64,000 nucleotides of DNA from an uncultured Clostridia bacterium (GCA_944381085.1 CALWJX010000002.1:50571-114570); one strand, 5' to 3'; positions 1,831 to 58,145 are shown, counted from the stretch's first letter. Program-made: numbers and translations. Notes: generated by a model from the letters alone, not told the origin.

Positions 1831-3435
1831 TTATTGAAGTATCAGATACATTCCGAGCCTTGATTTTGACGGATCTGCCGGAAGCTTTAAGGATCCGTTT
1901 TCCACAAGGTCGTGTACGGACATCATGCGCATGTATGTCATTTCCATATGCGTATTGAAGGGTATATGTCCGCGCAATACCTTATGATTATATTTTTCGA
2001 GTATTTTTTTGATCCCGTCTTTGGCATCCTGAAAGTTCTCTAAGATCAAGTCATAATTTCTGTGCTTTTTAAGCATTTCCCATATTTTATGACGGCTTTC
2101 GTTATCAAACACAAGAATGTCGGGAATGATTTTTCCGTCGTCATCAGAATGGGCATATTTCCCATCAATATTTTTCCAGATTTCTTTTTCTCTGTCCGAA
2201 AACGAAGATGTTTTCCGACCGTTTATGATGCATTCACCGAGAAACAATGACTCGTAGTAATTCGGTTCACCGCACTGGTCCCAGAGATTGTAGTCTTTAA
2301 TTTTATATGTCCAGAGCATAATTTTTTCGTTTCCGCGTCCGTTATGACCTATTATTGTGGATTCGGGAAGACTGACGTCCTCATACCCGACAAATCCCCA
2401 TGTTTCTCCGTTGGCGCGTTTGGGAGGAGCGTAATTTTCACCGCCGAATGCTTCATGAGTGAAATAATCCACCGTGCTGAGCGTCAGATACCATTTAACG
2501 GTATTGTCGTCTATATGTTCTCCGGCAATGTTAAGAGAGCGAATATTATGCAGTTCATCCCCGATGAACTCATTTATCATACGGCTTCTTTCCTTTGAAC
2601 CGGCGCGCAGAAGATTATAGATGTCAAGCTGGCACTCTTTGTCCAATATGAAGAAGTTGGTTATATATCTGTTGCCGTCCTTTTCAAGCAGGGTAGCGTT
2701 GTACAACAGTTCCACTTCTTCCTCCATATACGGAAGCGCTATTCCAAGTTCCATCGAAAGCTCTTCTGCCGTTGAAGGGTTGTTGCTTGCCTGAAGCAAA
2801 ATGTTTTTCGGTATTTTCCTCTCTACCGCCGAAAACGGAAGTCCGCTTGGCTGCGGTCCGGTGGAAATAAAACTGATGTTTTCGGGATTATAACTCTTTT
2901 TTCCGAATTCTCTTGCCATATTCATACCTTCTTTCATTTTTTTTCTCGCACGGTGAAGTCTTTGCTTTACCGTGTCTTCGGGAATTGAAAGAGACCGGGC
3001 AATGTCACGCACGCTTCTGTTTTCTATATAGTAAGCAACCATGATACTGCGGAAGTCGCTCTTGATGAACGCGAGTTCACGACGGAGCAGTGACAGTTTT
3101 TCGCCGTTTATCATATCGTCAAGAACATTTTCACTTTCGTCCGCGATTTCATAGTCACCGACGTCGTAACCGGTTACATACTCGTTGTGCCTGTGTTTGT
3201 ATGCTGCCCATACGGAATATCTGTTGCGCGCTATTTTCCAGACCCATGCCGAAAAGCTTGAGGGGATTATGCCTTTGTTCAGGGCGGCTATGATATTCAG
3301 TGAGATATTTTGGGTAAGGTCTTCCGCCTCGTGGCTGTTTCCCGTCTTTTTCAGACAGAAATAGAAAATTTTTTCCATGTAGTTTTCGGCAAAATCTTCC
3401 GCGAGCTTTTCAGACATGTTTTTTGAAACTGACAT
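1831..3435 (-). CDS. Sigma-70 family (ECF-like) RNA polymerase sigma factor with a ~350-aa C-terminal extension
   Basis: Region-2-like HEAEDLTQNISLNII...FSAWVWKIARNRY and region-4 HTH SVRDIARSLSIPEDTVKQRLHRARKKM sit in the first ~190 aa. Start moved to ATG 3435 (MSVSKN), which has GAGAGGGAAAG 7 nt upstream. Confidence 0.8.
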   Translation of the reverse strand: MSVSKNMSEKLAEDFAENYMEKIFYFCLKKTGNSHEAEDLTQNISLNIIAALNKGIIPSSFSAWVWKIARNRYSVWAAYKHRHNEYVTGYDVGDYEIADESENVLDDMINGEKLSLLRRELAFIKSDFRSIMVAYYIENRSVRDIARSLSIPEDTVKQRLHRARKKMKEGMNMAREFGKKSYNPENISFISTGPQPSGLPFSAVERKIPKNILLQASNNPSTAEELSMELGIALPYMEEEVELLYNATLLEKDGNRYITNFFILDKECQLDIYNLLRAGSKERSRMINEFIGDELHNIRSLNIAGEHIDDNTVKWYLTLSTVDYFTHEAFGGENYAPPKRANGETWGFVGYEDVSLPESTIIGHNGRGNEKIMLWTYKIKDYNLWDQCGEPNYYESLFLGECIINGRKTSSFSDREKEIWKNIDGKYAHSDDDGKIIPDILVFDNESRHKIWEMLKKHRNYDLILENFQDAKDGIKKILEKYNHKVLRGHIPFNTHMEMTYMRMMSVHDLVENGSLKLPADPSKSRLGMYLILQ

Positions 3436-3515
3436 TTTCTTTCCCTCTCTTTCGCCCATATAGTGCGGCGTTTTGAATTTAGGTGACAGAAAATTTTTGC
3501 TTTCCCGACAATTTA

Positions 3516-3544
3516 ATTATACCTCAAAGTTGTAAATTATTCAA
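3516..3544 (-). promoter_or_regulatory. Candidate sigma-A promoter for the sigma-factor gene
   Basis: On the minus strand: TTGAAT, 17-nt spacer, TATAAT, about 80 nt upstream of ATG 3435. Confidence 0.4.
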
Positions 3545-3764
3545 TTAAAAAATTCAAATCATATAAAAGAATAAATCTGTTATTGATTATTTTTAATATT
3601 AATTCAAGTAAACCGACATTATATTTTGTTAACGTAAAAAATTTTGTGCAACAATTATATTTTCAAAAAACAGGCATTTAGAGCAAATGTCATTAACATG
3701 CCCCGAAAATAATAATAAATTGTAAATAATGCGATTTTAACCGTGTTTTTTTACAAAAAAGCAG

Positions 3765-3793
3765 TTGACAAATTGGTTATATTGTATTATAAT
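3765..3793 (+). promoter_or_regulatory. Consensus sigma-A promoter upstream of rsmE
   Basis: TTGACA (3765-3770), exactly 17-nt spacer, TATAAT (3788-3793). Confidence 0.6.
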
Positions 3794-3867
3794 AATTGCA
3801 TAATCAAAAATAAAACATCCGTTATAATTAACAAACAAGTTGATTTGCCGCATTGGGAGGAAATTTT

Positions 3868-4617
3868 ATGCCGCGTTTTTTTGTGGAATCTGCTCAGATA
3901 AACGACGGATTTGTTTATATCCGCGGAGACGACGCCAGACATATTTCCCGTTCCTTGCGCATGGCAAAAGGAGATTATGTAATCGTATGTGATATGCAAA
4001 GCGTAGAGTACGGTTGTATTTTAAAGGATTTTTTTGACGACTGTGTGACGGCGCAGATAGTTTCTTCCCGAAAATCGGACAAAGAGCCTCCTTTTTATGT
4101 TCATTTGTATCAGGCGATGATTAAAGGTGAAAAACTCGATTTTGTCATCCAGAAGGCTGTGGAGTGCGGCGTATTTTCCGTAACTCCGTTCAACAGTGAA
4201 AGATGCGTGGCAAGAGAAGCGGTTACCGATGAAACAAAGCTCAAAAGACGCAACAGAATATCGTTGGAAGCGGCAAAACAATCGGGAAGAGGGATTGTTC
4301 CTGCGGTAAATCGAACCGTTTCTTTCGATAAAATGACGGGATTGGCAGTCAATTCTGATATTGCGCTCTTTTGTTATGAGGGAGAAGGCACCGAGCCTCT
4401 CAAAAAGGTTCTCCGGGAAATTGTTAAAAATAAAATTGTGAATAAAATTCCTGTGATCTCGGTAATTACCGGGTGCGAGGGAGGATTTACACAGTCGGAA
4501 GTAAAAAAAGCCGAAGATTCCGGAATGATTTTAACCGGACTCGGAAAAAGAATTCTCAGAGCTGAGACCGCTTCATGCTTTGTACTTGGATGTCTGGTTT
4601 ACGAATTTGAATTGTGA
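3868..4617 (+). CDS. rsmE: 16S rRNA (uracil1498-N3)-methyltransferase
   Basis: MPRFFV... N-terminus, and C-terminal GCEGGFTQSEV...GKRILRAETA typical of RsmE. ATG 3868 is preferred over TTG 3853 because GGGAGG sits 8 nt upstream. Confidence 0.85.
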   Translation: MPRFFVESAQINDGFVYIRGDDARHISRSLRMAKGDYVIVCDMQSVEYGCILKDFFDDCVTAQIVSSRKSDKEPPFYVHLYQAMIKGEKLDFVIQKAVECGVFSVTPFNSERCVAREAVTDETKLKRRNRISLEAAKQSGRGIVPAVNRTVSFDKMTGLAVNSDIALFCYEGEGTEPLKKVLREIVKNKIVNKIPVISVITGCEGGFTQSEVKKAEDSGMILTGLGKRILRAETASCFVLGCLVYEFEL

Positions 4618-4698: not shown

Positions 4699-5784
4699 AT
4701 GTCAAACAGATTATTCCAAAATGTGATTCATCAGATGAAAGCCGCTGTTGACAGAGTGATAGGCGTTATTGATGAAAACGGGGTTATCATCGCGTGCTCC
4801 GAACTTGTAAAGATCGGAGAGATCAAACAGGGTGTGCGTGACGAGCTCACATATTCGACGGATATGGTTGTATCGGGAGGATATACATATCGTCCGATAT
4901 CGTCCGGCGCAAAGAATGAATATATAGTGTTCATGGAAGGCGAAGATAAAATGGCGGAGAAGATGTCAAAGCTTTTGGCTGTGTCGCTTCTCAACATCAA
5001 GAACCTCTACGATGAGAAGTATGATAAAGGCTCTTTTATAAAAAATATTATTTTGGATAATATACTGCCCAGCGACATATATATTAAATCGAAGGAGCTT
5101 CACTTCAATACCGAGGAGCTCAGAATAGTTTTCCTTATTAAATTTTTCGGCAAGACGGATATGATGCCGTTTGAAATGCTCCAGAACATGTTCCCCGATA
5201 AATCAAAAGATTATGTTATCAGCGTGGGCGAACATGATATCGTGCTTGTCAAGGATGTAAAACCCGGTACCGAGATGAAGGATATCGAAAAAATAGCGAC
5301 GAATATCTCGGATACTCTTTCTTCGGAATTCTATACCAAAGTAAATATAGGTATTTCCACAATTGTCGAGAATCTCAAAGACCTCGCAAGAGCATACAAG
5401 GAATCGCAGATAGCCCTTGAGGTCGGAAAAGTATTTGAGACCGAAAAGAATATAATAAGCTATGAAAATCTCGGTATCGGCAGGCTTATATATCAGCTTC
5501 CCACAACTCTTTGCGAAATGTTTTTGCAGGAGGTGTTCAAAAGAGGTAGCCTTGAGTCGCTTGACCGTGAAACTTTGATGACTATTCAGTGCTTCTTTGA
5601 AAACAACCTCAATGTCTCCGAGACGTCGAGAAAGCTTTTTGTGCACAGAAACACTCTGGTTTACAGACTTGAGAAGATACGCAAGATAACCGGACTTGAT
5701 CTGCGTGAGTTTGAGCACGCCATTACCTTTAAGGTTGCGCTGATGGTCAAAAAATATCTCAGTTCAAAACCGTCTAAATTTTAA
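4699..5784 (+). CDS. PucR/CdaR-family transcriptional regulator
   Basis: C-terminal PucR-type HTH: NVSETSRKLFVHRNTLVYRLEKIRKITGLDL. SD AAGGGG lies 9 nt upstream. Confidence 0.75.
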   Translation: MSNRLFQNVIHQMKAAVDRVIGVIDENGVIIACSELVKIGEIKQGVRDELTYSTDMVVSGGYTYRPISSGAKNEYIVFMEGEDKMAEKMSKLLAVSLLNIKNLYDEKYDKGSFIKNIILDNILPSDIYIKSKELHFNTEELRIVFLIKFFGKTDMMPFEMLQNMFPDKSKDYVISVGEHDIVLVKDVKPGTEMKDIEKIATNISDTLSSEFYTKVNIGISTIVENLKDLARAYKESQIALEVGKVFETEKNIISYENLGIGRLIYQLPTTLCEMFLQEVFKRGSLESLDRETLMTIQCFFENNLNVSETSRKLFVHRNTLVYRLEKIRKITGLDLREFEHAITFKVALMVKKYLSSKPSKF

Positions 5785-6051
5785 TATGTCTGTCTACAAT
5801 GTATATAAGTTTAAGCGGAACGCCGCTCTGCGGCGTTTCGCTTACGCTTATTATAAAATCGAAAGCCCGACGAAGTATTTTTAATTTGTCTTGTCTGATT
5901 GAGCGTGCCGAACGGCTTTTGAGTTTTCTTTTGGGATAAAAACCGACTTCGCGCTGTATCTGGAAAATTTCGGATTAAAGTTACTGACACAAATTAAGTT
6001 GTGCTCGTGTGAAGCACAGAACCGATAATCAGGAAAGGCTTGGTTTAATTA

Positions 6052-43829: not shown

Positions 43830-44900
43830 TTACCAATCAAGCGTAATTTCTTTACCGGCGTCCGAGGAGTCATATATCGCCTGCATCATGCGCGCCGTAA
43901 GGATGACTTTGTCAATATGAGACTGAATTTTCTCACCGGTCTGAACGCACCTTATAAAGCTGTTGATCTCCTCTTGAAACATATTGACGCTTTCAAATTG
44001 AGGAGTTTCATCCCAAAGCTTTCCGTCTTTGGTTCCGTAGATGGTAAAATTGCCTCCGTATGTAAGCCTTATACCCGCCTTGTCGCCGAGAAAATCTATA
44101 TAAGTTTCTGACGGTCCTATATTCTGTGCCCAAGCGCCGTTAAGCGAAATAGTGGGACCGTTGTCTGTACGGATAAAAGCGGTAACACTGTCATCAACGT
44201 CGTATGTGCCGTTGAGATTTTTGGTTTCCTCACTCCACATACTCTCGTACACATAATTTTTCATATCTTTGCCGAGCTTTGAAAATGCTTTTCCCGATAC
44301 GGTAATCGGCTTCGGGTCGCCTGTGCAGTACATGACTATGTCGAGATAATGCACGCCCCAGTCGATAAGCGCTCCGCCTCCGGCAATCGCTTTTGTGGTA
44401 AAGGCTCCTCCCAGACCGGGTATGGAGCGGCGCGCCCTGAATGAAACATAAACGTGATATATTTCGCCGAGTTCACCGGACCTTATAATGTCCCTTATTT
44501 TATTGACCGCGGTATTGAAGCGGTTTACAACGCCGATATTCAGTGTTTTTCCGGTTTCATGCTGTATATTCTGCATCTTTTTGGCTTCGTCGTAAACGCG
44601 CGCCGCGGGTTTTTCACATAGCACATGTTTTCCTGCCAAAAGAAAGTCAATGGATATTTCGGAATGCATTTTGTTCGGAGTGCAAACAGAAACGGCGTCG
44701 ATTTCCGGGTCGTTCAGAATCTGACGGTAATCGTAAACCGCTTCGCCGCAGCCGTACTTTTTTACGGCGGCATCGGCTTTTTCGGGAATAATATCGCAGA
44801 AATATTTAATTTGGGCATCCGGGTTGCTTAAATAAGACGGGATATGAGCCGCGTTGGCTATGCATCCGCATCCGATGACAGCTACATTTACTTTTTTCAT
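43830..44900 (-). CDS. Gfo/Idh/MocA family NAD(P)-dependent oxidoreductase
   Basis: VAVIGCGCIAN Rossmann N-terminus and the EKP motif (VLCEKPAA). Confidence 0.85.
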   Translation of the reverse strand: MKKVNVAVIGCGCIANAAHIPSYLSNPDAQIKYFCDIIPEKADAAVKKYGCGEAVYDYRQILNDPEIDAVSVCTPNKMHSEISIDFLLAGKHVLCEKPAARVYDEAKKMQNIQHETGKTLNIGVVNRFNTAVNKIRDIIRSGELGEIYHVYVSFRARRSIPGLGGAFTTKAIAGGGALIDWGVHYLDIVMYCTGDPKPITVSGKAFSKLGKDMKNYVYESMWSEETKNLNGTYDVDDSVTAFIRTDNGPTISLNGAWAQNIGPSETYIDFLGDKAGIRLTYGGNFTIYGTKDGKLWDETPQFESVNMFQEEINSFIRCVQTGEKIQSHIDKVILTARMMQAIYDSSDAGKEITLDW

Positions 44901-45025
44901 AAATCCTCCGTACCGAAAAAGGTTTTAGTGTTTTGACGGAAACATGTCCCGTCTATACAAAATTATAACAAAATATATCTGTCAAGTCAATATGATTATT
45001 TATTTTTATGTAACAATTTTCTGTA

Positions 45026-45052
45026 ACATAAGTGTTTTTTCGACATAGAATA
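45026..45052 (+). promoter_or_regulatory. SigK-like promoter candidate (AC, 16 nt, CATAGAATA)
   Basis: AC at 45026-45027, 16-nt spacer, CATAGAATA at 45044-45052. This fits the Bacillus SigK consensus AC-N16/17-CATANNNTA and lies 80 nt upstream of ATG 45132. Confidence 0.4.
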
Positions 45053-45131
45053 GTAGTGTAAAGAAATTGAATTAACCTTCGGGCAATTTCTTTTAATGTT
45101 TAACATACTATTTAGGGGGATATATAATATT

Positions 45132-45974
45132 ATGACCGAAAACAGATTTTCATGCGGACCCGGTTCGGGCAGGGAAAGCGTTTCAATAGAAACAAACAGA
45201 ATTCTTGACTCATGCAAGGATAGAGACTGTTTCGAGAATGTCCGTGTATTTCTCACGGATTTTGGAAATGAAATAGTTGAAAGAACCAGTACAATCAGAG
45301 TAAAAAGCTCTTGCATCACATGGACATACATCAATATAGACCCGGTTCAGTTTAACAAAGGTTTTTACACTGTAACAATCAGATTTTATATAAAACTTGT
45401 ATTTGAAGCCTGCGTGGGAGGAGGACATTCTCAGGAGTTCGACGGTATTGCGGTCCTTGAGAAAAATGTAATTCTTTACGGTGGAGAGAGCAATGTCAGC
45501 ATTTTCCGCAGTTCTTCCGATTCAATGAGCTTCTGCGCTCAACCGGAACCCTGCTACTGTGAAAAGAATGTTCCTACCGCTGTTGTGGAAGTAGTTGATC
45601 CTATTGTTCTCGGACTTAAAGTGGTTGAGAATGTAAACGAGTGTTGCTGCTGTTGCTGCTGCGCATGTGATATACCTGAAAGTATAACACATACACTTTC
45701 GGCAAATCTCAGCGGCGACAACGGAAACGAACCGGGCAGATACCTTGCGGTTTCTCTCGGAGTGTTCTCGATTATCCGCATAGTACGCCCGGCGCAGTAT
45801 ATCGTAAACGCTACCGAATACAGCATACCCGACAAAGAATGTGTTTCCGCTACTCAGGACGATCCTTGCAGCGTATTCCGCGCAATGGCGTTTCCCACCT
45901 CTGAATTCAGCATGGGATGTACTCCGACATTCCTCGGCGACAGATCCGGCAATCCCGGAAAATGCGGCTGCTGA
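45132..45974 (+). CDS. Cysteine-rich hypothetical protein (21 Cys in 280 aa; ECCCCCCCAC run); candidate spore coat/exosporium component
   Basis: ORF with AGGGGGA upstream of ATG 45132, which gives MTENRFSCGPG. It ends ...GKCGC. No TM or signal peptide. No family recognised. Confidence 0.6.
   Translation: MTENRFSCGPGSGRESVSIETNRILDSCKDRDCFENVRVFLTDFGNEIVERTSTIRVKSSCITWTYINIDPVQFNKGFYTVTIRFYIKLVFEACVGGGHSQEFDGIAVLEKNVILYGGESNVSIFRSSSDSMSFCAQPEPCYCEKNVPTAVVEVVDPIVLGLKVVENVNECCCCCCCACDIPESITHTLSANLSGDNGNEPGRYLAVSLGVFSIIRIVRPAQYIVNATEYSIPDKECVSATQDDPCSVFRAMAFPTSEFSMGCTPTFLGDRSGNPGKCGC
45642..45668 (+). repeat. (TGY)7-GCA-TGT codon tract encoding C7AC
   Basis: tgt tgc tgc tgt tgc tgc tgc gca tgt, read directly from the sequence. 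Confidence 0.9.
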
Positions 45975-46014
45975 AAGGCTTTGAGGAATTAATTGAATAA
46001 ATTATAGTATTCTG

Positions 46015-46068
46015 AAAATCCCCTCGGTGCATAAGCCGTTAAACGGTAACGCCGAGGGGGGATTTTTT
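46015..46068. terminator. Bidirectional terminator between convergent genes
   Basis: AAAATCCCCTCGG ... CCGAGGGGGGATTTTTT, with an inner CCGTT/AACGG hairpin. Confidence 0.7.
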
Positions 46069-46095
46069 GCGTCGCTTTAATTCTGTATTAATTTC

Positions 46096-46956
46096 TCAGT
46101 CAGCAGCTCGAAGTCTTTCGACAATGCTTTGCTTTTCGAGATTTCTGAAGCAGATATACGGAATCAGTACGGCAAAGAAAATCAGAATCGGCGCGCATAC
46201 CGTAAGCGGCATAAGTGTGAAACGAAATGTAGAAGTCCAGTCATTCGCCACAATTATACGGACGCCTATGCCTACCGCCAAAGCAGACAATACATATGAG
46301 GAAATCAGGGTAAACGCGGCATAATATAGTCCCTCGTCTATAAGCATTCTTCTGAGCTGACGCTTTGTCATTCCGATGCTCTGTATCATCGCGAATTCCT
46401 TCTGTCTTGAAACGATAGCGGTTACCATGGAGTTGATAAAGTTCAGAATGCCGACCAAAGCGATAATTATACTTATTGCCAGACCCATTACGGTATTGGC
46501 GCGCGTCTGATCTTTATAGTGCTCTGTTAATGTGGTTTTAGAGGTGAAATTCAGGCTCTTATCCTCATCTTTGCGATAATCATTCAGCATCTGCTCGGCG
46601 TCGGCGCGATATTCTTCGGATACGTCGAAAAACAGCTTACGAAGCGTGTTATCCGGATACATCTGTCGGAATGTTTCGGCAGGGAGATAAAATGAAAGAA
46701 AATCCGGGGTATCGCCGTTCAGTCCCTCAGTGACAGCGGATATGTCTGTAACAATAGCCATGACTTCATATTGTGTTCCGTTCAGTTCAACCGAATCTCC
46801 TATCGAATAGGTGGGCTGGGTTTCGTATTCATTTTCCTCTGCGCCCGACGCCGCTTCGACAATCACATATCCGCCGGCGAGAAACTTATCTGCGTCAAAT
46901 TCGCCTTGAAGCATTACGCCGTCTTTTGAGAAGGTATCTATGATGTGATTTTGATT
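46096..46956 (-). pseudogene. FtsX/MacB-type ABC permease, C-terminal half only (truncated)
   Basis: Periplasmic-domain tail, then TM, RQKEFAMIQSIGMTKRQLRRML and two more TMs. The N-terminal TM1 and the preceding module are absent. The frame closes at an in-frame TGA (46957-46959), and there is no SD. Confidence 0.7.
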
Positions 46957-52132: not shown

Positions 52133-52384
52133 ATGCTTCTCCTTTATATAATCCTAAATGATAAACTGAAAAATTTGGTTTTCCGTAATTTTGTCTTCCG
52201 CTTATATAATATAATGATATATTTAATTAATATTATAACGCATAATAATACAAAAATCAATAGCAATATTTAAAATTTTGAAAAAAAAACAGTTATTATT
52301 ATTTTATCAAAATTTTGTTTTAAATTATCTTCGGCAGTGTGTGAAACAATATAATTGAAAATATACGAAGGGGTATTGAATAAA

Positions 52385-53185
52385 ATGACAAAAAAGAATA
52401 TAAATTCAAAAATAAAAGTTTTTGTCTGTTTTTTGTGCGCTCTGTGCATATTCGCGCTTTCCTGTTTGACTGTCTTCGCCGAAGCGGGAGTGTTTAATTG
52501 GTATGTGATGAGAAACAAGGAGCACAAGCAGCCTGTAGCGGAGAAAAACCTTTCCTTTATTTCAGAATACGGTGGGTATTATATAGATACAAAGCATGGC
52601 GACAGTACGGAAGAAAAGGTCGTATATCTTACGTTTGACGCCGGATATGAAAACGGCAATGTCGAAAAAATACTTGACGTGCTGAAAAATCAGAATGTAA
52701 AAGGCGCGTTTTTTGTGCTCGGAAATCTGATTGAACGCGATACGGGTTTGGTATGCAGAATGTTTGACGAGGGGCATCTTGTATGCAATCATACCTATTC
52801 CCATAAAAGCATGGTGGGAAAAAGCAGGGAAGAGGTTCAGTCCGAACTCAGACGTCTTGAACAGACATGTAAGGACCTTACGGGCAGAGAACTGTCAAAA
52901 TACTATCGTCCTCCGGAAGGAAAATTTGACGCGAAATCACTTGAATACGTAAATGATATGGGATATAAAACGGTATTCTGGAGTTTTGCGTATGAAGACT
53001 GGGACAACAACAGGCAGATGAGTCCGGAAAAAGCCAAGGCGAAAATACTTGACAATATTCACAACGGCGAAGTACTTTTACTTCATCCCACATCGGCTAC
53101 AAATGCCGCGGTGCTTGAAGATGTGATAATTGAACTGAAAGATCAGGGATACAGATTCGGAACCTTGGACGAGCTCTGCGGCTGA
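52385..53185 (+). CDS. pdaA: Delta-lactam-biosynthetic de-N-acetylase (sporulation polysaccharide deacetylase PdaA)
   Basis: Collinear with B. subtilis PdaA from memory: NW..R...H.QP, YLTFDAGYENG, EGHLVCNHTYSH, YYRPPEG and TVFWSFAYEDW. N-terminal signal/TM. Confidence 0.8.
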   Translation: MTKKNINSKIKVFVCFLCALCIFALSCLTVFAEAGVFNWYVMRNKEHKQPVAEKNLSFISEYGGYYIDTKHGDSTEEKVVYLTFDAGYENGNVEKILDVLKNQNVKGAFFVLGNLIERDTGLVCRMFDEGHLVCNHTYSHKSMVGKSREEVQSELRRLEQTCKDLTGRELSKYYRPPEGKFDAKSLEYVNDMGYKTVFWSFAYEDWDNNRQMSPEKAKAKILDNIHNGEVLLLHPTSATNAAVLEDVIIELKDQGYRFGTLDELCG

Positions 53186-53222
53186 CGAACAAAAATATGA
53201 GAATCAAGGAAGTTTTTGCATA

Positions 53223-53930
53223 ATGACGCTACGTAAAACTTTGTTATGGCTGACGGCATTATCGGTTATTTTTTGCACTGTTTCAAATTACAGTAAGCCG
53301 GCGGACTGTGCCGTGGCAACAAAAACAGATATTTATAAGAATTACCAAAACAGCGGCAATAAAATTGCCCTGACGTTCGACGACGGTCCTCACCCACGGC
53401 AAACGCATGAAATCCTTGATATCCTTGACGAGTACGGAATAAAAGCTACATTTTTCGTAATCGGAGTAAATGTGAAAAATTATCCCGAGGCGTTTCAGGA
53501 AACAATAAGGCGCGGGCATGAAATAGGCAATCATACCTATTCACACCCGCACTTAAGCGGCGCCGATTATAATACTTTGAAGAACGAAATAGATAAATGC
53601 GAATCCGCGATTTCACTCGCGGCGGATTATAAACCCAAGCTTTTCCGACCGCCGGAAGGATGGATAGACAGCGATGTCAAAACCTTATCCGAACAGTACG
53701 ATTATAAGGTTATTCTTTGGAACATTGACACAAAGGACTGGGCGCACACACCATCCGACAAAATAGTAAAATATGTGACCGATAATGTCAAGCCGGGAGA
53801 TATAATACTGATGCACGATTATATCGGAAAGAACAGCCCTACCGCCGAAGCCTTGCGAGGTTTCATTCCCGTACTGCTCGAAAGAGGGTATCAGTTTGTG
53901 GTTGTAAGCGAGCTTATAGGTTCAAATTGA
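53223..53930 (+). CDS. NodB-homology polysaccharide deacetylase (peptidoglycan GlcNAc deacetylase-like)
   Basis: ALTFDDGP, HEIGNHTYSH, LFRPPEG and ILMHD motifs. Signal-like N-terminus. Confidence 0.85.
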   Translation: MTLRKTLLWLTALSVIFCTVSNYSKPADCAVATKTDIYKNYQNSGNKIALTFDDGPHPRQTHEILDILDEYGIKATFFVIGVNVKNYPEAFQETIRRGHEIGNHTYSHPHLSGADYNTLKNEIDKCESAISLAADYKPKLFRPPEGWIDSDVKTLSEQYDYKVILWNIDTKDWAHTPSDKIVKYVTDNVKPGDIILMHDYIGKNSPTAEALRGFIPVLLERGYQFVVVSELIGSN

Positions 53931-57720: not shown

Positions 57721-57857
57721 ATTTCTCCTTGTTGTTTCCGGAAAGATTTTTACATTCCGAAATAAAAAACTAATAAATAATTAATATAAACGGTTTTTAT
57801 GTCATATATTTTTATTGTATTTCCCGAATTTATCAGAAATTTCTCAGAGGTAACGTT

Positions 57858-58145
57858 ATGATGTATTTATCATCGAGCAAGGAACGCTGTGTGGTCCTTG
57901 GAATGTACTTAGTTGAAAACAATGCGACTGTAAGAGCGGTTGCGGCACGATTCGGAATAAGTAAAAGTACGGTACATAAAGATGTAACTCAGAATCTTAA
58001 AAATGTGAACTATGCATTGTATACGGATGTTCAGCGAGTATTGAAAAAGAACAAAGAGGAGCGTCACATAAGAGGCGGGGAAGCCACAAAAATCAAGTAT
58101 AAACATGAGAGTATGCAGAAGTCCGGTAAAAATCCCGTCAAATAA
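57858..58145 (+). CDS. spoIIID: Sporulation transcriptional regulator SpoIIID
   Basis: KERCVVLGMYLVENNATVRAVAARFGISKSTVHKDV...HIRGGEATKIKY aligns along its length with B. subtilis SpoIIID from memory. Confidence 0.9.
   Translation: MMYLSSSKERCVVLGMYLVENNATVRAVAARFGISKSTVHKDVTQNLKNVNYALYTDVQRVLKKNKEERHIRGGEATKIKYKHESMQKSGKNPVK

Follow-up and report, generated by a model that had tools for sequence, protein, structure and literature searches.

Spore surface proteins govern the resistance, the adhesion and the host-to-host transmission of anaerobic commensals. To our knowledge, the spore envelopes of taxa labelled Oscillospiraceae or Eubacteriales appear to be essentially uncharacterised. [quoted passage not shown] A structural model of CsxA shows three intertwined subunits of the SPOCS/DUF3794 fold, and the protein has been grouped with CsxC, CdeC and CsA/CsB as cysteine-rich lattice builders (bioRxiv 10.64898/2026.09.03.749163). 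CsxA has so far been reported from Clostridium sensu stricto and genera closely related to it, and we found no Oscillospirales homologue in the examined papers that treat CsxA together with spores. The CsxA of C. sporogenes/group I C. botulinum (UniProt G9F2G0; Pfam PF27077; NCBI name 'exosporium protein CsxA') served as comparator throughout, and its query sequence was taken from the supplement of PMC4942563.

The gene described here lies on the plus strand of a 64,000-nt stretch of DNA, hereafter the window, from an uncultured Clostridia bacterium (GCA_944381085.1, CALWJX010000002.1:50571-114570). A previous reading made from the DNA alone, referred to below as the sequence-only reading, had described an ORF of 280 amino acids with 21 cysteines (7.5%), and translation from the ATG at 45132 to the stop codon ending at 45974 (45132..45974, +, stop codon included) yields exactly this CsxA-like cysteine-rich product, including the segment ECCCCCCCAC with its run of seven cysteines, the pair C28-x4-C33, a CYC motif and a terminal CGC. 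Gene callers start the protein at the ATG at 45096 (292 amino acids, P0001; open frame 45096-45974, +). The methionine encoded at 45132 is the better start, since 18 of 18 aligned homologues begin there, and the 292-residue form is probably around 12 residues too long. By eye, neither a signal peptide nor a transmembrane segment can be made out in the 280-residue sequence. The start codon is preceded by the ribosome binding site AGGGGG (45114..45119, +), which in relatives reads GGAGG or GGGGG and is located 6-9 nt upstream of the ATG. Folding further predicts a stem-loop in the 5' leader (AAAGAAATTG ... CAATTTCTTT; 45060..45093, +), whose position is kept in most family loci while its sequence differs (mean z of -1.7 in the close branch), and which may serve to stabilise the mRNA. 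Downstream of the gene, the region 46008-46078 folds into a hairpin of -26 kcal/mol (z = -2.6) with an A-run on one side and a U-run on the other, in line with the strong bidirectional terminator that had been proposed. This intrinsic terminator hairpin (46014..46067) lies between the gene and a convergent FtsX-like ORF ending at 46096, which it also serves, and it is plausibly bidirectional because of this placement; a simple terminator scan missed it because of its large loop, and folding recovered it. The gene is monocistronic and isolated, as had been stated, and its neighbours, which encode a Gfo/Idh/MocA oxidoreductase, a rhamnosidase and an FtsX permease, are housekeeping genes unrelated to it.

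The protein belongs to a large family. A search of an index of 5.8 billion proteins returned 1546 matches, the top 120 of which are full-length and 61-79% identical to the window protein; these carry either no name or the name 'hypothetical protein', and no Pfam domain. An exhaustive phmmer search of 1.84 billion representatives clustered at 50% identity gave 835 matches with E <= 1e-3, 111 of them with E <= 1e-30. In a collection with a single genome for each GTDB species, at least 593 stretches encode a relative; the 80 best among these all stem from genomes of uncultured Clostridia, Eubacteriales or Oscillospiraceae, nearly all of which are MAGs, and their isolate names point mostly to the herbivore and human gut. 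Metagenomes of the human gut and of fermenters commonly contain members of a distant branch, which share approximately 28-36% identity with the window protein, and for ten divergent members the cluster names are all 'hypothetical' or empty. Close-branch proteins have a median cysteine content of 8.1%, compared with 6.4% for distant-branch proteins and 6.7% for proteins of the CsxA family. No recognised family model covers the window protein, as the sequence-only reading had noted: it and 27 relatives match no NCBIfam model and no model of a Pfam set that lacks PF27077 and in which CsxA itself scores nothing. Searches of PDB sequences with the single sequence and with the family profile likewise returned no match.

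The additional statement that the protein cannot be placed in any named family did not stand, as the family finds its place beside the CsxA family, of which it is a divergent sister (hhalign probability of 98.9%). The first lead was P0387, a member of the distant branch with a weak precomputed match to PF27077 'CsxA'; among the roughly 240 family members listed, it is the only one with this precomputed annotation, which the family as a whole does not carry. BLASTP aligns residues 197-256 of the window protein with CsxA at 32% identity over 60 amino acids (E = 6e-5). Comparison of the family alignment (A2) with CsxA by hhalign gave a probability of 97.8% and an E-value of 1.2e-12 over 213 columns, which span positions 14-261 of A2 and 23-257 of CsxA. 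For the CsxA family itself, an alignment of 19 sequences (A4) was derived from 87 homologues from Clostridium, Haloimpatiens, Hathewaya and Anaerovoracaceae; all 87 are annotated as PF27077, and none belongs to the family of the window protein. Against A4, the family alignment reached a probability of 98.9% (E = 2.8e-17), and an alignment of the distant branch (A3) reached the same probability (E = 1.6e-17), the similarity extending over about 215 columns. The profile similarity to CsxA is thus significant and full-length, and size (around 250-300 amino acids), cysteine load (around 6-9%), a cytoplasmic appearance and conserved motifs are all of the CsxA type, at an identity between the two families of only around 18-20%. 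Judged by these alignments, the window protein is a remote CsxA homologue, and its family forms a homologous sister group outside the Pfam model, because the PF27077 annotation is absent from all members listed save P0387.

Motifs shared with CsxA lie in two regions. The first one is the N-terminal motif CI-x-v-x-(K/R)-(I/V)-(F/L)-D-x-C-x-(K/R)-x-x-C, shared with CsxA, which includes a D-x-C-x4-C element at residues 25-33 (LDSCKDRDC, 45204..45230, +) that aligns with FDQCLRKEC of CsxA and is found in 120/120 close relatives, 116/117 members of the distant branch and 85/87 proteins of the CsxA family. This motif may also resemble CdeC/CdeM, which we take as a lead only. The second one is the best-conserved block, residues 203-260 (RYLAVSLGVFSIIRIVRPAQYIVNATEYSIPDKECVSATQDDPCSVFRAMAFPTSEFS; 45738..45911, +), detected by both BLASTP and hhalign, and its C-terminal motif common to CsxA reads TLG-x-F-x-I-(I/V)...VQ-x-(M/L)-(I/V)-P-A-Y-x-Y-C-x-P-x-x-E-C...DPC-x-x-F...P-x-x-(F/Y)-P. 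Between the two lies the poly-cysteine loop ECCCCCCCAC (residues 172-181; 45645..45674, +), which aligns with the cysteine cluster DCGGGCNCGCTC of CsxA; at this alignment position, the loop reads DCGGGCNCGCTCPDD in CsxA and ECCCCCCCACDIPES in the window protein. Of 120 close relatives, 119 have a run of at least four and up to eight cysteines; neither the distant branch nor CsxA proper contains such a run. The terminal CGC (codons at 45963..45971, +) is found in 111 of 120 close relatives and in 21 of 117 distant-branch members; it is absent from CsxA proper. The C6-C8 run and the terminal CGC are therefore conserved traits of one subclade, that of the window protein.

The gene had been suggested to be preceded by a SigK-like promoter. 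The window does contain the site AC-N16-CATAGAATA at 45026-45052, at a distance of 80 nt upstream of the ATG: the -35 region GTAACA (45023..45028, +) contains the sigma-K-type 'AC' (45026-45027) and is positioned 16 nt upstream of the -10 region CATAGAATA (45044..45052, +), which is of the mother-cell sigma-E/sigma-K type, and the nearest relatives look alike. A loose AC-N16 promoter pattern has seven matches in the window when both strands are counted; a single site alone is therefore uninformative and the lone match unremarkable, yet the site is conserved across orthologues. When around 160 nt of DNA ahead of the start codon was compared between 78 genome loci, a conserved element emerged 50-90 nt upstream of the ATG; 41 sites matched in spacing yield the consensus natTGTCAAA-N12-GCATAnnAT(g/a)TTA, followed by the stem-loop and GGAGG. 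The strict pattern TGTCA-N14-16-[GA]CATAnnAT has 47 matches on both strands of 860 kb, all 47 of which lie directly upstream of a family gene. Since this strict motif precedes no other gene in the window or in the family loci, it defines no co-regulated set. The GTAACA form of the -35 region is found in the window and in L003, L004, L007 and L009, which are its nearest relatives, with the N16 spacing kept; most other close loci carry TGTCA, whose C is found at the same N16 spacing, and the distant branch uses GCACA, GTAACA or GTCACA.

Promoter patterns were counted at 79 close-branch and 68 distant-branch loci (around 147 in total, the distant-branch regions being non-redundant) and compared with composition-matched shuffles. 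The -10 element CATAnn[AC]T is present in 77/79 close loci (8.3 expected) and 54/68 distant loci (8.1 expected), a C exactly 16 nt upstream of the -10 region in 58/79 (1.1 expected) and 52/68 (1.4 expected), and the canonical sigma-K pattern AC-N16/17-CATAnnnT in 11/79 (1.2 expected) and 52/68 (2.0 expected), although all of these counts overstate the number of independent events because many loci are closely related to one another. The persistence of three -35 variants in lineages with only around 30% protein identity argues for selection on the promoter. From the conserved -10 element and the -35 counts we conclude that the family promoter is, by its sequence, of the mother-cell type with a -35 region of the sigma-K kind; for the TGTCA variant, the putative sigma-K assignment is drawn from the invariant C and its spacing and not from a full AC dinucleotide. 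The csxA genes possess comparable elements: C. botulinum csxA and two tandem csxA paralogues of C. estertheticum carry ATCACA-N15-GCATA(CT/AT/TT)AT 57-63 nt before the ATG, and csxA of Hathewaya carries GTAACA-N15-GTATATTAT. The family gene thus shares the promoter architecture of csxA, and both are putative late mother-cell promoters.

The genome had been described as that of a spore former on the strength of genes in the window. The window encodes a SpoIIID-like protein (TIGR02844, 102 bits, slightly below the cut-off of 111.5), a PdaA-like deacetylase (277.6 bits with a cut-off of 298) and a CwlD-like amidase; an M50/RseP-like match is weak. The promoter of the window's own spoIIID has a sigma-E-like -35 region, GTCATAT, and no clear CATA -10 region, and for the latter reason it is unusable for calibrating sigma-E against sigma-K. 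Around the family gene, sigG is found directly upstream in 7 of 80 loci, and no other conserved partner gene emerged across the family neighbourhoods, so that guilt by association is uninformative. A collagen-repeat ORF is present in the csxA locus of C. botulinum (L167); none was found in the window or in 164 family loci, and neither glycosyltransferase genes nor divergent partner genes of 500-600 codons were detected beside the window gene or in these 164 loci. Co-location with collagen-like (BclA) or glycosyltransferase genes is frequent but not universal for csxA. Counterweights to a CsxA-like reading are the identity of around 18-20%, the near-absence of the PF27077 annotation, the missing csxA partner genes and the canonical AC in 11/79 close loci.

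The sequence-only reading had proposed a cross-linking cysteine-rich protein of the outer spore layers, and the remote homology to the exosporium lattice protein CsxA supports this proposal. We consider it likely that the gene product is a divergent CsxA homologue with a structural role in the outermost protein layer of the spore, whether this is an exosporium basal layer or a comparable lattice of the outer coat or crust. A narrower question is which layer it would build. The protein might be a CsxA homologue of another compartment, namely an outer coat or crust layer, or a CsxC-like three-dimensional parasporal or interspace crystal, instead of the basal layer of a sac-like exosporium. Cysteine-rich relatives of the SPOCS fold do differ by layer, as CsxA forms a two-dimensional exosporium lattice, CsxC forms three-dimensional interspace crystals and CdeC is part of a non-sac exosporium (bioRxiv 10.64898/2026.09.03.749163). 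The lack of genes for a collagen-like 'hairy nap' near any family gene and the presence of a poly-cysteine run and a terminal CGC that CsxA does not have point in the same direction. However, the homology is specifically to CsxA, no similarity to CsxC is detectable by hhalign (probability of 0.1%), and the promoter architecture equals that of csxA, which makes a different compartment possible but rather unlikely.

A late structural protein may also be distinguished from an early, sigma-E-dependent organiser of mother-cell morphogenesis comparable to CotE, SipL or SpoVID. Sigma-E and sigma-K have one -10 element in common, in C. difficile as in B. subtilis, and the A of the 'AC' is missing from most close-branch sites, both of which leave room for sigma-E; moreover, SPOCS-fold proteins include morphogenetic organisers (bioRxiv 10.64898/2026.09.03.749163). 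The -35 region separates the two sigma factors: an ATA at sigma-E spacing occurs in only 3/79 close and 1/68 distant loci, which is chance level in both branches, whereas the sigma-K pattern is present in 52/68 distant-branch loci. In neither branch do patterns of the sigma-G and sigma-A type occur above chance level, if they occur at all. In addition, organisers of the SPOCS fold are cysteine-poor (bioRxiv 10.64898/2026.09.03.749163), while the family members described here contain 6-8% cysteine. An organiser role is thus very improbable.

Structure prediction is compatible with a lattice subunit. Two AF2 models, built from alignments of 28 and 59 sequences, reached a mean pLDDT of 72.6 and 77.3, and the predicted core comprises 136 residues with a pLDDT of at least 90 and five strands of 17-28 residues. 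Long strands common to both models are predicted at residues 15-42, 55-71, 78-95, 99-116, 149-166 and 203-227; confidence is low for the cysteine loop, residues 121-144 and the termini. The model found no structural match in PDB and BFVD, which fits a predicted subunit that is meaningful only inside an intertwined oligomer. The window protein and 27 relatives have no sequence match to PF12673 (SPOCS/DUF3794), and membership of the family in the SPOCS fold would be transitive only, through CsxA. If the window protein acts like CsxA, sigma-K RNA polymerase would transcribe its gene in the mother cell late in sporulation, and the 5' stem-loop, the strong ribosome binding site and the strong terminator would provide for a stable, highly translated mRNA. 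The protein would be made in the mother-cell cytoplasm and would oligomerise via long interlocking beta-strands, similar to the predicted trimeric hubs of CsxA; the oligomers could then tile into a high-symmetry lattice around the forespore. Because such a lattice would bring cysteines of adjacent subunits together, disulfides could lock the layer, and the C6-C8 loop, which aligns with the CsxA cysteine cluster, and the C-terminal CGC are candidates for these bonds.

The cysteines might instead bind metal or buffer redox changes, as in a metallothionein-like or Fe-S/Zn protein of the mother cell, with the CxxxxC and C-x8-C pairs forming a metal site. C28, C33, C237 and C246 are nearly invariant across the whole family, CsxA included, conditions in the mother-cell cytoplasm of a strict anaerobe are reducing, and six to eight adjacent cysteines are geometrically poor for intramolecular disulfides, all of which speaks for such a role. 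No similarity to metal-binding families in Pfam, NCBIfam or PDB was found, however, and CsxA arrays come apart only under harsh reducing conditions (PMC7333573); furthermore, a structural Zn site would be compatible with a cross-linked outer layer and not opposed to it. A function in metal or redox chemistry alone has a slim chance at best. It is tempting to speculate that the poly-cysteine run and the terminal CGC of the window protein's subclade do more than cross-link and that, if a CsxA-like lattice forms and the poly-cysteine loop lines its pores, a dense ring of dozens of thiols per pore could act as a metal-thiolate or redox-active 'chemical sieve', a scenario which we regard as doubtful; it might scavenge oxygen and oxidants or sequester Cu/Zn for strictly anaerobic gut spores and would be an undescribed functional addition to the CsxA scaffold. 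Finally, a prophage or phage structural protein that is cysteine-rich by chance, suggested by weak top Foldseek matches to phage neck and tail proteins and secretins with similarly long beta-hairpins, is effectively refuted by the poor scores of all these matches (E >= 0.013, TM <= 0.19), a neighbourhood free of phage genes, the conserved sporulation promoter and the homology to CsxA.

As a putative spore surface family, the proteins described here constitute a large sister group of CsxA with members in hundreds of species of gut and fermenter Clostridia labelled Oscillospiraceae or Eubacteriales, which are uniformly called 'hypothetical'. This would extend the CsxA kind well outside Clostridium, which is not surprising in kind; the poly-cysteine run is unusual yet conserved. 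The family offers a concrete candidate for the main scaffold in the outer spore layer of these bacteria, its promoter may serve as a highly specific signature for their late mother-cell genes, and the similarity makes a case for broadening the Pfam model of CsxA.

Among known systems, small cysteine-rich proteins also form the exosporium basal layer and crust of Bacillus, where ExsY, CotY and CotZ build hexagonal, disulfide cross-linked arrays in the mother cell. They are unrelated to the window protein in sequence and fold, neither the latter nor 27 relatives match the CotZ family model PF10612, and the likeness is one of analogy only. CsxC of C. sporogenes, CdeC of C. difficile and CsA/CsB of C. 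sordellii are, by description, likewise cysteine-rich, self-assembling and disulfide-stabilised proteins of the outer spore envelope, and they are predicted to have the SPOCS/DUF3794 fold in common with CsxA (bioRxiv 10.64898/2026.09.03.749163). CdeC and CdeM had been offered as analogues; CsxA is the better comparator, because the family can be placed as its sister group. Several differences separate the two: the window protein has neither the N-terminal FIPRPG-x-VNKQG-x-LPDP segment nor the acidic C-terminal tail of CsxA, and its subclade possesses two traits that CsxA does not have, a C6-C8 stretch made up of cysteine alone and a (K/R)CGC at the C-terminus. At csxA loci there is a gene for a collagen-like protein, a glycosyltransferase, a divergent ORF of 500-600 amino acids or a DUF4489 gene; the loci of the window family carry none of these, and their contigs are labelled Clostridia, Eubacteriales or Oscillospiraceae (from the animal and human gut and from fermenters) and not Clostridiaceae. 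Taken together with the shared motifs, the window protein nevertheless resembles CsxA in length (280 and 299 amino acids), in the number of cysteines (21 and 25) and in having no signal peptide, and its gene, like csxA, is a single-gene unit behind a (T/A)CACA- or GTAACA-N15-GCATAnnAT promoter.

The start of the CsxA-like gene (window 45132-45974, plus strand) was placed 36 nt too early by automatic gene calling, which added window positions 45096-45131 and yielded a version of 292 amino acids (P0001). The P0001 start lacks a ribosome binding site, and the methionine encoded at 45132 is the first residue in all 18 aligned homologs.

The 5' leader of the gene contains a stem-loop (window 45060-45093), which is found at the same relative position in most of the family loci L001-L165. 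It begins a few nucleotides past the -10 box, at the mRNA 5' end or close to it, and the sequence of the stem varies between loci, for instance, GAAGAG..CTCTTC, GAGAAAG..CTTTCTC or TGAAGTTT..AAATTTCA. Within the close branch, the subclade of the window protein, the leader stem-loop has a mean z of -1.7, and z is below -1.5 in 46% of the loci; folding of the window's own leader over 79 nt is not significant (z = -0.37). The stem-loop may act as a 5' mRNA stabilizer of a highly expressed late gene.

In 7 of the 80 close loci, sigG is located directly upstream of the CsxA-like gene in the same orientation (L023, L046, L048, L052, L058 and L059, about 5100-5915; L030, about 3395-4216). In L030, the SigG protein reaches 415 bits with the SigG model NF006071, whose cut-off is 372, and the CsxA-like genes of all seven loci keep their own promoter.

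The ENA contig L085 is 98.9% identical to window 44871-46944, where the similarity ends. The convergent FtsX/MacB-type permease comprises 854 amino acids in L085 (1268-3832), whereas the window contains an ORF of only 272 amino acids (compared stretch 46096-46944). The difference stems either from a true truncation or rearrangement or from a join introduced by assembly into one of the records.

Elsewhere in the window, the region upstream of spoIIID (57858-58145) carries a perfect sigma-E-type -35 heptamer, TCATATA; however, no CATA -10 element is recognizable at the expected spacing within 57790-57857. Two adjoining polysaccharide deacetylase genes (52355-53930) encode a PdaA-like and a PdaB-like protein, both of which score below the respective equivalog cut-offs (277.6 versus 298 and 192.3 versus 237.4).

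In the genuine csxA loci of Clostridium estertheticum and Hathewaya (L168, 3001-5471; L169, 3001-4740), a DUF4489 gene comes after csxA. C. estertheticum carries two csxA paralogs in tandem ahead of this gene, and both paralogs have a sigma-K-like promoter of their own. A divergent ORF of 500 to 600 amino acids, for which no Pfam family was found, is present in all three csxA loci, including that of C. botulinum (L167).
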